From: Escherichia coli
GTDB taxonomy: Bacteria; Pseudomonadota; Gammaproteobacteria; Enterobacterales; Enterobacteriaceae
DNA length: 64,000 nt
Assembly (NCBI RefSeq): GCF_024700885.2
Contig: NZ_CP117016.1
Direction: 5' to 3' (one strand)
A program made the position numbers and the translations under genes. Below are positions 1 through 11,580 of this stretch, piece after piece; positions within the stretch are counted from its first letter, which is position 1, and every line of letters begins with the position of its first letter. The notes beneath the pieces are model-generated. The model was not told where the DNA came from. It saw nothing but the letters and a program-made list of their open reading frames with translations, and searched no databases.

Positions 1-61
1 CTCCTGCACATTCACCCTTTCTGATTTCCAGCGACGCGGACGCTCGCTCTCACTGCCATTA

Positions 62-403
62 TCAATGGTTGCCACCGTTAGCATTCAGTAACGGTAGTGC
101 CAGCACAATATCCACCAGGGAACGATCAGAAACCGTCGATAAATCACAGACCGGAGGCAGATTATCCGCGCGTTCCGTATCAATAAGCGTTCCGTCCGGG
201 AAACGAACAATCAGACGGGTGGCATTCAACCGTGAAAGCGGTAACAGAGAGTCATCAAACTCTGCAGCCACCACGCCCCATGGATGCGCCAGCCCCATTC
301 TGGCAACGCTGTCTGCCAGATGAACATCCCAGGCAGCCTGCTGCTGAAACTGCTGGGGCATCAGAAAAGCCCCGTCTTCCCATAGTGGGCGATAAATCTT
401 CAT
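62..403 (-). pseudogene. tssK: T6SS baseplate subunit TssK, 5' portion; frame breaks after codon 113 (TGA TAA) while another frame stays open to the window edge
   Basis: N-terminus MKIYRPLWEDGAFLMPQQFQQQ fits the TssK family start; lies 16 nt downstream of tssC on the same strand; the 113-codon length is far short of TssK as I recall it (~445 aa). Confidence 0.5.
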
Positions 404-418
404 TTCCCGACACCTGCC

Positions 419-1963
419 TTACGCTTTTGCCTTCGGCATCTGCGAAACCAGTGACAGGCTGACGTCCATACCTTCTACCTGGAAATGCGGTACGGCGTAG
501 AGTTTCACGCGGAAGAATCCCGGATTGTCTTCGATATCTTCCACCACCACTTTTCCGTCACGCAGCGGATGCGAGGCCTGCAGTTCATCACCCGGATCGG
601 TCATCTCCGTCACCAGTCCCCGGATCCAGTTATTCAGCTCCAGCTCAAGCAGACGGCGATCTTTGGTGGTACCGATATTTTCCCGCTGAATGATCTTCAG
701 GTAATGCGCAATACGGGACAGCAGGAAGATATAGGGAAGACGGGCATTAATACGACTGTTCGCCGTTGCATCCGGCGTATCGTACAGCGCCGGTTTCTGG
801 GCGGAGTTAGCAGAGAAGAAGCAGGCATAATCCCGGTTCTTGTAGTAAGAGAGCGGAATAAAGCCCAGATTCGCGAATTCAAACTCCCGCGTTTCCGGGA
901 TCATCACCTCTGACGGAATTTTGACCTGATTACCGGTTCCCAGATCATACAAATGGATTGGCAAATCCTGCACCGCACCACCGGCCTGAGGCCCACGGAT
1001 CTGAACACACCAGCCGTTGGTGACAAAACTGCGCACCATGTTGGCTGCAAAGGCAAAAGACGCGTTCGTCCAGAGATATTTATGGTGGTCCGGTCCTTTC
1101 ACCTCTTCAACATAGTTAAAGCTGCGGACAGGTACGGTATCCGGGCCATACGGCAGGCGTCCCAGTACACGGGGCATCACCAGGCCAATATAGCGGGCAT
1201 CGTCCGTCTCACGGAAAGCATTCCACTTGATGTACTCGGCACGCTCAAAGTGGTTGCCAATATCCTTGATGGCAGCCACCTCTTCCATGGTTTCTTTCTG
1301 GAAGAACGCCGGGCCAACTGAACCAATAAACGGCATATGTGCAGATGCCGCCACCCGGGAAATATTTTTCAGCAACGCCACGTCCTGTGCAGATGCATCA
1401 AACTCCCAGGCTGAAACCAGGGCGGCAATGGGCTCACCACCCGGCGTGTCATACTCAGCCACATAGGTCTGCAGATAAAGGCCGCTCTGAATAATTTCCG
1501 GCGCATCCTCAAAATCCTGACGCAGATCGTCTTTGGACAGATCCAGCAGCTCAATTTTCACATTACGGCGGAAGTCCGTTTTATCCACCAGGGACTTCAC
1601 GCCCCGCCACAGCGACTCCACTTTCTGAAATTCCGGATGATGAAGCACAGCATCCAGTTGACGGCTGATCTGATAATCAAGCTCTGCAATATGATGGTCA
1701 ATCAGCGCTTTATCGAGTTTTTCCACCTGCGTGCCGGCTTTTGCCAGACACTCCATAAACACCTGCATCCCTGCCGTCAGACGTTCATCTGCAGATGCTT
1801 CTGACATGGCCTGTGGATCCTGCCAGATATCCAGTGCACTCAGGGCAGATACCGGACTCAGGTTAATTTTTTCAAACAGGGAAGCATATACGCTGTCGCC
1901 GGCATGCGCTTCAGATACCACGCTCTCTGCAACGTTCTTTTCTTTCTGTACAGACATCAGCAT
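419..1963 (-). CDS. tssC: T6SS contractile sheath large subunit TssC (VipB)
   Basis: 514-aa ORF directly downstream of tssB, of the size expected for TssC; GAGAG Shine-Dalgarno before the ATG. Confidence 0.8.
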   Translation of the reverse strand: MLMSVQKEKNVAESVVSEAHAGDSVYASLFEKINLSPVSALSALDIWQDPQAMSEASADERLTAGMQVFMECLAKAGTQVEKLDKALIDHHIAELDYQISRQLDAVLHHPEFQKVESLWRGVKSLVDKTDFRRNVKIELLDLSKDDLRQDFEDAPEIIQSGLYLQTYVAEYDTPGGEPIAALVSAWEFDASAQDVALLKNISRVAASAHMPFIGSVGPAFFQKETMEEVAAIKDIGNHFERAEYIKWNAFRETDDARYIGLVMPRVLGRLPYGPDTVPVRSFNYVEEVKGPDHHKYLWTNASFAFAANMVRSFVTNGWCVQIRGPQAGGAVQDLPIHLYDLGTGNQVKIPSEVMIPETREFEFANLGFIPLSYYKNRDYACFFSANSAQKPALYDTPDATANSRINARLPYIFLLSRIAHYLKIIQRENIGTTKDRRLLELELNNWIRGLVTEMTDPGDELQASHPLRDGKVVVEDIEDNPGFFRVKLYAVPHFQVEGMDVSLSLVSQMPKAKA

Positions 1964-1984
1964 TTTCTCTCGTAATCCGTTAAA

Positions 1985-2482
1985 TCACGCCTTTTCCGGC
2001 ACCAGTGCACGCAGTTCATCACGCAGCGTCTGACTCAGTGCCGGGTCACGCAGAATTTTTTCCAGCTCTTTACGGAAAGTCACGTTATCCAGCAGATTGG
2101 CTTTCAGGTCCCGCAGAAGGCTACGCATGGCCAGCATGGCTTTAAGACGGGGAATCTGTCGGGCGACCTGCTCTGGCGTGAAATCGTTCATATTGCGGAA
2201 AGTCAGGCTGATGCTCTCTTCAGAGCCATCACCGGCAAGCGTGTTCTCCACATTCAGATGTACAGACGGGGAGATATCTGCCAGAACATCATTAAAATTG
2301 TTTTTATTAATATCCGTTTTTACACGCTCTGACAGTGGACGCTCTTCCTGTCCGTTACTGAAATCACCGGCAACCAGAAGTTTGAGCGGAAGCTCCACTT
2401 TCTTCTGCCCACCACCCGTATGTAGGTCTAATTTCAGATTTACCCTTGCTTTCGGGATTTCATTCTGAAACGAACTGCTCAT
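1985..2482 (-). CDS. tssB: T6SS contractile sheath small subunit TssB (VipA)
   Basis: Segment KARVNLKLDLHTGGGQKKVELPLKLLVAGDFS is TssB-like; start placed at internal Met (MSSSFQNE) preceded by AGGAGA; ORF track extends to 2506. Confidence 0.8.
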   Translation of the reverse strand: MSSSFQNEIPKARVNLKLDLHTGGGQKKVELPLKLLVAGDFSNGQEERPLSERVKTDINKNNFNDVLADISPSVHLNVENTLAGDGSEESISLTFRNMNDFTPEQVARQIPRLKAMLAMRSLLRDLKANLLDNVTFRKELEKILRDPALSQTLRDELRALVPEKA

Positions 2483-2558
2483 GGCTCTCTCCTGTGAAAC
2501 CTGCATCTAAGGGGTTCCATCACCGCAGATGCCTCCCCTTGTGCACTGATTTAATTTT

Positions 2559-2611
2559 GATCATTATAGGACGAAGATCTGAAAAATCTCAATATGACAG
2601 ATACATCGATC
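2559..2611 (-). promoter_or_regulatory. AT-rich tssB upstream region with three GATC sites and a Fur-box-like half site (GATCATTAT)
   Basis: GATC at 2559, 2576 and 2608, about 80-130 bp upstream of the tssB start; a Fur/Dam switch is reported for the EAEC sci1 T6SS promoter. Confidence 0.3.
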
Positions 2612-2988
2612 GATATAACGCAAATAATCAGGACTTTATTCTATGGAATGTCGCAAAATAATGAATATTCAAAGCTTATAACCATTGTTAATGTAAAAAT
2701 ACAGAAAATTATTCCACAAAACACTTTTGATACAGCCAGTTAACATAAACACTGTATTTTCTTGATTTCAGTCATTGAAAATCACAATGAGTAAAGTTTC
2801 AGCAGCATTGACGTGATTTCTGGAAAGCGGGAAAGATATGGAGGAAGGGCCCAACAAAATGCAATGAAAGAAGGAGTGAGGGGATTTCTAGTAAAAACAG
2901 AAGATTAACAAAACACATCAGGAGGCAGAGACTCCTGATTCAGTGCTACCACATGAAAATTTAGTTAACTGTTACCGTTCTGAAATCT

Positions 2989-3180
2989 ATGTCAGAAGAT
3001 ATTCCATTACCGAAAATCAATCAGCGATACAGAGACGATCATGGTGCGCTTGTCACCGTGACCAGTGTTGAGGAAACCCGGGTGGTGTTTATGCGGGACG
3101 GCTATCCGCATCCCTGCATGCGACCGATGTACAACTTCCTGGGAAAATTCAAACCCGAACCCCGGGAAGAAACAGAATAA
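2989..3180 (+). CDS. small hypothetical protein (63 aa)
   Basis: ORF only; no clear Shine-Dalgarno. Confidence 0.25.
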   Translation: MSEDIPLPKINQRYRDDHGALVTVTSVEETRVVFMRDGYPHPCMRPMYNFLGKFKPEPREETE

Positions 3181-3232
3181 AACGAAATCCCTGCCGGCAA
3201 TCACATTGCCTGATGGCAGCATAATCCACTTA

Positions 3233-3541
3233 TTAATTCTCATCCCCGGAGACAAGCCCTGAAAACCACTCCGGGTGTTCACTGTATGCTGTGTTCAGCG
3301 CATCCCAGGAAACGTTGATATAAAAGCTGTCCTGCAATTTCCGGGTAACCACCTCTGCCAGGCGGTTCCGGTTACCCACCAGTCCGGCATAACCTCTCTC
3401 TGCCAGCCACTCATTCAGTTCATGTTCCAGAGACAGATTGATAATATCGTAATCGGACCTTGCCATTCCCGTTTCCTTAGCACATGTTTTCAGGCACGGG
3501 GATAAAGTATAAAGAATGTCGTACTGCTGCTGCCAGAGCAA
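3233..3541 (-). CDS. hypothetical protein (102 aa; possible internal start at MARSDYD)
   Basis: Last ORF of a co-directional minus-strand gene string 6023 to 3233. Confidence 0.35.
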   Translation of the reverse strand: MLWQQQYDILYTLSPCLKTCAKETGMARSDYDIINLSLEHELNEWLAERGYAGLVGNRNRLAEVVTRKLQDSFYINVSWDALNTAYSEHPEWFSGLVSGDEN

Positions 3542-4493: not shown

Positions 4494-4967
4494 TCACTCC
4501 TGGTCCCGGAGCAAATCTGGCTGGTATCTGTAAACATACTTCGTACATGCCGCTCTGCAATAAATCCCCGTGCCACAGGCTTCACAGAACTTTTTCCCGG
4601 AAAAATGCTGCCCGCACATCACACAATGCCACTCCAGCACGACAGGTAATGGCGATAAAAACATCGCCATATCATCAATGTAAGGATGGGATTTTTCCGG
4701 ATTCAGCACCACGCAGGCCGCCTTCTGTTGCGCGCTCAGGGCATGTAAATCGTGCTCAAACCACGCCCCCTGAGCATCTGTCTGCAAAATCAACCGGCCA
4801 CGACAGGAAAGACAGAAACAATGCCGGATATTTCTGCTGAGCGCAGAATCGGCACTGATAATGTGCTCACCCGGCGTGATCCCAGCCCCGTTTTTATACC
4901 GTTCATTCTGCAACCACCTCCTCACTGAAGCGCCCTGTATGACAGTGTGTGCAGTACTGCTCCCCAT
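4494..4967 (-). CDS. Cys-rich (multiple CxxC) putative zinc-binding protein, 157 aa; may be the 3' half of a frameshifted gene
   Basis: CFCLSC and CVMCGQ...CEACGTGIYCRAAC motifs; overlaps the upstream Cys-rich ORF by 65 nt in another frame. Confidence 0.4.
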   Translation of the reverse strand: MGSSTAHTVIQGASVRRWLQNERYKNGAGITPGEHIISADSALSRNIRHCFCLSCRGRLILQTDAQGAWFEHDLHALSAQQKAACVVLNPEKSHPYIDDMAMFLSPLPVVLEWHCVMCGQHFSGKKFCEACGTGIYCRAACTKYVYRYQPDLLRDQE

Positions 4968-10350: not shown

Positions 10351-11580
10351 AGTAACCTCACTACACACAGATATAAAAGCACTGCAATTCTGGCTATTAA
10401 TAGCAAAAATAGCAGTCAAATCAATATGAGGTAAAAATTTTTGTTGATTTAATGGTTAAATAATAACCACAGTGTGTTTTGCTGCTGAAGAAAGACAAAA
10501 TGAATCTGTGTGTCCCCTCCTTCCCTTCAGAGCACATCCACTATTCAAATTTTACACAACCACGTACGAACAAAAAGCATCATCCCGGGTATTGCAGATA
10601 CCGGTTTCCTGCCGGGATGAATCATAAACAGAACACCGGGAATAACGCCTTCAGGAATCCCCCCCCTCCTGAAGAAGAATAAAATAAAGAAGACTACATT
10701 TCCTGCACTGTATGCTGAGTACAATATTCTATGGACAGGATGACATATTTATAAATAACAAAAACCATTTAATACTGATACATCAATAAAATACTTCCTC
10801 CCTGCTGACGCAGATAAAATGCACCATTTTTTCTTCAAATACTTCTGTATAATCGCCAGCCAATGATGAGAATGGATTAAAATAACACTTCTTCGACAAA
10901 CACAAAAACAGCCTTCATTTTACATCATCATCCAGTTTCAGTTAACCCCGGACGAGCAACAGCGTTTCAGTACAGGAATTAAAAGCCAGCTTTTGCTCAG
11001 TAAAAACACACTCAACTAATAATATCTCAGCAGATATTATCCTGACCAGGACACCTCACATTACTGAATTCTCTTCCGACAGTATCACTGCACAAATAAA
11101 AAAGAACGGGATAAATATTCAGACCGGAAGAATGGTGTCACAAAAGCATTTAATCATTACGCATGACCAGGAAGGGAAACACTTAACCACATGGTATCAA
11201 CAGATATCATTACGTGTGCACTCTTATAAAAAACACACAGAAGAAGTAAGATAATTATAAATGTAAATTTAATATCTCCCACTGACATCTCCCCCACAAT
11301 ACACTGAAAAATACTCACAGCAGTAAACACAGACACACCTGATAATCATGCAGCCGATAAATATTTTCCCCTTTACGGAGAAATCAGCCTGCTGTTTAAC
11401 AATAACGGCGTATTTTCATGGAAGGAGATCACCCAGTAACGGATAAGTCCTGATCTCCTTCATGTTAATACGCAACAATCCCATCGATTAAAAACAATTT
11501 CAGACAGATATTATCTCCGTGAATCCCCCGCCACCTTTCCGGTGCGCGGGATTTTGTCTTTTTTCACCGGGAATACATGT

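Follow-up and report, generated by a model that had tools for sequence, protein, structure and literature searches.

Introduction

The Sci-1 T6SS of EAEC is the best-characterised T6SS of E. coli and that species' principal model for T6SS structure. Its TssK protein, which we take to be the product of EC042_4526 under the old locus tags of strain 042, is represented by the protein records WP_000708638.1 and WP_000708637.1 and by the PDB entries 5M30, 5MWN, 5M2Y, 6GIY, 6GJ3, and 6N38. TssK is one of six proteins needed for Hcp-tube assembly in EAEC, where it recruits TssFG after it has docked on the TssJLM membrane complex; the TssF baseplate foci turn diffuse in EAEC tssK cells (PMC4604203). 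Residues 1-315 of TssK make up the shoulder and the neck, and residues 316-445 form the head; baseplate binding is a function of the shoulder, and TssL/TssM binding of the head (PMC6300606). The same neck/head boundary at residue 315/316 is found in the PDB constructs. The N-terminal region (residues 1-18; W8, L14, F19) binds the feet of TssG, and the single substitutions W8A, L14A, or F19A each abolish killing (PMC8406304).

The window analysed here is a stretch of 64,000 nucleotides from E. coli (contig NZ_CP117016.1), with a Sci-1-like gene cluster at its left edge. We compared its tssK with the intact genes of EAEC 55989 and 042 and with the closest complete genome, that of strain MLI114 (NZ_CP117013.1).

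The tssK reading frame

The 5' fragment of tssK occupies positions 62..403 on the minus strand, from the ATG at 401-403 to a TGA at 62-64. Its 113 sense codons comprise 112 native TssK residues and a His, and the translation is MKIYRPLWEDGAFLMPQQF...LPLLNANGGNH. The TGA is followed by TAA (59-61), giving tandem premature stops in frame 0 at 59..64 (-), which are created by an inserted base. In the +1 frame, the same strand is open from the stop at 85-87 down to base 1 of the window, with the translation MLTVATIDNGSESERPRRWKSERVNVQE. The first-pass annotation had described both features, a TssK-like frame closed by TGA TAA after 113 codons and a shifted frame open to position 1, and both are present as it described them.

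The two frames each carry a part of TssK. The 113-aa fragment is identical to residues 1-112 of the TssK of EAEC 55989 and 042, and matches the Pfam model PF05936 (T6SS_VasE/TssK) at model positions 1-95 of 429 with 70.5 bits (E 1.6e-19), the curated threshold being 23.4 bits. The +1-frame ORF with the remainder of TssK spans 1..84 (-), begins at the ATG at 82-84, shares 23 nt with the 5' fragment, and continues past the window edge. An open stretch of about 28 codons in this frame is by itself not significant. The significant point is its sequence DNGSESERPRRWKSERVNVQE, which in E. coli 55989 and 042 stands after LNANGGNL in the intact TssK of 445 aa. Extending the locus leftwards, as the annotation had proposed, gave all remaining TssK residues up to the native stop in the +1 translation of the MLI114 gene. 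In full-length loci, the +1 ORF is 339 aa long and ends where native tssK does, at a stop codon that overlaps the start of tssL (ATGA), and it is called as a PF05936 gene in two such loci, L007 and L008. An uninterrupted shoulder-neck-head polypeptide of about 445 aa is not found, the frame being broken after codon 112.

The cause of the break is one inserted base. MAFFT alignment with the tssK genes of 55989 and 042 places it at window position 66 (66..66, -), an A on the coding strand and a T on the plus strand, which is nt 338 of tssK in the context AACC[A]TTG. The site reads AACCATTG with the insertion and AACCTTG without it, and is not a homopolymer. A frameshift had been suspected at positions 60-70, and the DNA alignment with EAEC sci1 tssK bears this out as a 1-bp insertion. 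It is the only indel in the 1339 nt of tssK; besides it, there is one nucleotide difference to the 042 gene and two to the 55989 gene. The intact tssK of both EAEC strains is 1338 nt long and encodes 445 aa, and the MLI114 gene has 1339 nt. The remainder of the gene is colinear and conserved, as a frameshift pseudogene with a single indel should be, and fusing the two ORFs minus one base gives the 445-aa reference protein except for known allelic substitutions. The homologues run to 445 aa rather than ending at this position, and the shifted frame is identical to the reference TssK. Judged by sequence and synteny, the locus is a TssK family member, but it is a tssK pseudogene for want of an uninterrupted polypeptide.

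The Sci-1 cluster and its surroundings

By the match of its genes and their order, the cluster around tssK is identified as the Sci-1 T6SS of EAEC. The intact TssK matches the EAEC TssK solved by crystallography and cryo-EM (PDB 5M30/6GJ3) over residues 1-445 with an E value of 1.5e-299. Directly upstream of tssK in the direction of transcription are the genes of the large and small sheath subunits. The first, tssC (419..1963, -), is intact with 514 aa and matches Pfam VipB and VipB_2; its protein WP_000930191.1 is shared by MLI114, 55989, and 042. The second, tssB (1985..2482, -), is intact with 165 aa from the PGAP start (the mechanical ORF reaches to 2506) and matches T6SS_VipA; WP_000098939.1 is the protein in the same three strains. 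Both window proteins are identical to these reference proteins, and window positions 1-3500 are 100% identical to MLI114, in agreement with the earlier view that tssBC is intact.

The order tssB-tssC-tssK-tssL, followed by an OmpA-family gene, hcp, and tssH, is the same in MLI114, 55989, and 042, so tssK has the expected T6SS location beside tssBC and tssL. In the MLI114 annotation, the other Sci-1 genes are intact, namely tssB, tssC, tssL, the OmpA-family (TagL-like) gene, hcp, tssH, vgrG, tle1-EAEC, tli1-EAEC, a PAAR gene, an ImcF-related (TssM-like) gene, tssA, tssF, tssG, tssJ, and tssE. The sole damaged Sci-1 gene in that annotation is tssK.

Beyond Sci-1 in MLI114, to the left of the window edge (L004, 30398-31765), a second T6SS is present as fragments only: a partial gene with an ImpA-N domain, a partial gene with a VasL domain, and a ShlB/FhaC fragment. 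Near that position, EAEC 042 presumably has its Sci-2/aai cluster. If so, the lineage would be without Sci-2 as well as without a working Sci-1.

Other pseudogenes are called by PGAP in the MLI114 equivalent of the window. They are a frameshifted 'putative zinc ribbon protein' gene (~4494-4906), a YeeU-family antitoxin gene and a neighbouring antitoxin gene with internal stops beside an intact CbtA toxin gene (~23846-24908), and a frameshifted istA of ISEc10 (~26671-28166).

The window is 100% identical to MLI114 over positions 1-54051 but for one base in an intergenic poly-C tract at 10658-10665, which has a GTPase-family gene on one side and a yfjI-like gene on the other. The window has C8 where MLI114 has C7 (at ~10658-10665); slipped-strand variation or an error in sequencing the homopolymer could account for the difference. 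At ~54051, the window also has a 5-kb gsp deletion. This deletion and the poly-C tract rule out that the window is a plain reverse complement of MLI114 798504-862503.

The deletion concerns the region 53306-54260, where ~5.0 kb of the T2SS-beta (gsp) operon is missing relative to MLI114. At the junction (~54038-54051), AAAAATGCCGTGCG is followed by AATCCTCCGACGG, a fusion of the 3' portion of gspE with the initial ~23 codons of pppA. The genes gspS2, gspC, and gspD (secretin) and the 5' part of gspE are removed, leaving a gspE remnant ORF at 53306..54109 (-); sslE is retained intact beside it at 54246..58829 (-). On either side of the deleted stretch lies an imperfect microhomology, AAAAA(C)TGCCG. 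The junction is not covered by any complete E. coli genome in our collection, and the remnant protein, with either the 266- or the 267-aa start choice, has no entry in the gene index. A genuine deletion would mean that this T2SS could no longer secrete SslE.

Predicted consequence for Sci-1

Taking the lesion and its context together, we consider it highly probable that tssK is a lineage-borne frameshift pseudogene and that Sci-1 and the delivery of Tle1 are presumably lost with it. The extra A at nt 338 shifts the frame after codon 112 into TGA TAA, and translation would end in a 113-residue peptide. This peptide spans roughly the initial quarter of the TssK family model and lacks both the neck helices and the C-terminal head, the part of TssK that docks on TssL/TssM. 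Such a product is predicted to keep the TssG-binding tip (W8, L14, and F19) and to miss the rest of the shoulder-neck and the head, and thus it should be unable to link the wedge to the membrane complex. The +1 frame retains the other 333 native codons intact, and their product would arise, if at all, only by inefficient termination-reinitiation. With no full-length trimeric TssK, the TssFG wedges would not be recruited to the TssJLM membrane complex, and neither the Hcp tube nor the TssBC sheath would polymerise. The Sci-1 machine and Tle1 effector delivery would then be lost with the other cluster genes intact.

Since TssK is required for the Sci-1 baseplate and the Hcp tube in EAEC, loss of the T6SS is a likely consequence. 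Judging from the EAEC experiments on the same system, carriers of the allele likely have a non-functional Sci-1. Early termination may additionally lower tssL translation; polarity on this translationally coupled gene is possible because the native tssK stop overlaps the tssL start.

Possible rescue and recoding

A split tssK could still be functional if the 113-aa and 339-aa pieces were made by termination-reinitiation and reassembled, or if ribosomes underwent a +1 frameshift at CAT-TGA that restored a low level of full-length protein. We regard this as very improbable. The ATG of the +1 ORF precedes the premature stop by 20 nt, so that reinitiation is geometrically feasible and might occur at a low level, but a search for a Shine-Dalgarno (SD)-like motif upstream of the ATG of the 339-aa ORF found none, and the only weak SD candidate for the downstream ORF is AAGGG ahead of a GTG at nt 395. 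The position of the break also speaks against two cooperating pieces. The frame is lost at about model position 95 of 429, which is no domain junction, and the neck/head boundary (residue 315) comes only much later.

For ribosomal frameshifting, the site reads GGTGG-CAAC-CAT-TGA. The weakly SD-like GGTGG stands 4 nt upstream of the CAT that precedes the UGA, which gives a loosely prfB-like layout. However, codon-anticodon rules predict that tRNA-His on CAU could not re-pair on AUU after a +1 shift, with mismatches at two of the three positions, so that re-pairing would be unfavourable. A conserved frameshift site was not found either. Among the 38 complete genomes with a match to a 61-nt probe that has the site at its centre, the insertion is present in one (MLI114); in the remaining 37, the extra base is absent and the gene is uninterrupted. 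The site is a derived insertion and not a conserved recoding signal. In view of the lack of conservation, the probably unfavourable P-site codon, and the missing SD ahead of the downstream ORF, programmed recoding and reinitiation were both judged unlikely.

The good condition of the rest of the gene and of the cluster might be taken in favour of a functional split gene. There is no secondary lesion in tssK and the other cluster genes are undamaged, which fits a very recent inactivation; the absence of further damage would equally fit continued selection, if some TssK activity is kept. Little further decay is expected of a recent clonal mutation, as the loci that carry it are 100% identical.

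A related idea is that the 113-aa peptide acts as a decoy that sequesters TssFG wedges, or that it forms a low-activity two-piece TssK with a reinitiated 339-aa piece. We find this very doubtful. If it were true, the successful ST-349 clone could silence or throttle Sci-1 and keep the cluster, including the immunity gene tli1.

Distribution of the allele

A frameshift pseudogene carried by a lineage, which we favour, should recur in other assemblies. If instead the extra base had arisen as an error in sequencing or assembly, such as an indel left over from Nanopore reads, the gene would be intact in the living strain. In support of an error, the insertion is present in only 1 of 5426 complete E. 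coli genomes, and the window and MLI114 also differ at the poly-C tract, a classic site of long-read errors. The MLI114 genome was assembled with Trycycler from R9.4.1 Nanopore reads, but it was also polished with Medaka and Illumina/Polypolish (PMC10198576), and the lesion site, as noted, is not a homopolymer.

The rarity among complete genomes has an explanation as well. Megablast of window positions 1-1000 against the collection of 5426 complete E. coli genomes gave one 100% match over 1000 bases, MLI114, and the next matches, including 55989 and 042, span 999. On a 20-kb query, the next-best complete genome after MLI114 is 97.9% identical over 92%. The insertion is rare in that collection because MLI114 is the only close relative there.

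Outside the complete genomes, the truncated product recurs in samples and pipelines of varied kinds. Across NCBI, Logan raw-read assemblies, and an ENA metagenome, 178 contigs in 294 index blocks encode exactly the 113-aa product. The contigs in most of these blocks are <50 kb, a length typical of draft assemblies; STP43097.1, on a 5.22-Mb NCBI contig, is the exact product. The 339-aa partner ORF was found on 153 contigs. The metagenome scaffold L007, which comes from a different BioSample, is 100% identical to MLI114 over 6.3 kb, and the Logan contig L008 (SRR35176224) over 5.2 kb, the identical insertion included in each case; both are also 100% identical to the window where they overlap it.

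One poly-C difference and the 5-kb deletion make the window distinct from the MLI114 record, yet the insertion is common to both, and the window is probably independent of the other assemblies. The lesion is thus reproducible across the 178 contigs, L007 and L008, and two distinct carriers. A sequencing artefact at tssK is very unlikely, and the insertion is a genuine, clonally inherited circulating allele, lineage-wide rather than a one-off. Intact TssK alleles are found on at least 1000 contigs and on 762 contigs, so that the frameshifted tssK, with 178, is a minority allele beside them.

That TssK of this subtype naturally ends near residue 113, with the downstream ORF as a separate gene, has next to no probability: gene callers do annotate the 113-aa and 339-aa ORFs separately in draft and metagenome assemblies (STP43097.1/STP43100.1), but both match PF05936, the joined ORFs minus one base reproduce the 445-aa reference TssK, and the two intact alleles are far commoner.

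Significance and comparison with known systems

The finding itself is already known. In the closest genome, RefSeq labels tssK a pseudogene (PGAP, NL414_RS04590 in NZ_CP117013.1, with the note 'frameshifted'; intact in 55989 and 042), and both ORF products are in public databases. It is not unusual for one T6SS core gene to be inactivated by a frameshift, and the finding is of limited significance and opens no new mechanistic question. What is added to existing knowledge is only that the allele is lineage-wide and not a one-off.

MLI114 and its near-clone MLI121 are ST-349. This lineage, which includes ESBL-producing isolates from Mali, would be scored as having a complete Sci-1 by gene-presence screens, and its Sci-1 is probably non-functional from one base. 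Studies that score T6SS 'presence' by gene matches should therefore be read with caution. The allele could be used to mark the clone and to provide a naturally tssK-null background for Sci-1.

Three known systems are close enough for comparison. In the +1 frameshift of prfB, the UGA stands right after the shift codon and an SD-like stretch lies just upstream. The present site shares with this type a UGA right after a frame-0 codon and a G-rich stretch a few nucleotides upstream; it differs in that its P-site codon is probably not shift-prone, in that the site is unconserved, and in that it arose by insertion in one lineage. The tssK pseudogene of MLI114 has the same insertion as the window. 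With EAEC Sci-1, the likeness extends from a near-identical tssK gene in the same operon order to the position of tle1/tli1-EAEC downstream of tssH, as in the 042 and 55989 clusters. The difference lies in the reading frame: the EAEC TssK is encoded in a single frame of 445 codons, whereas the allele in the window is divided into a 113-aa and a 339-aa ORF.
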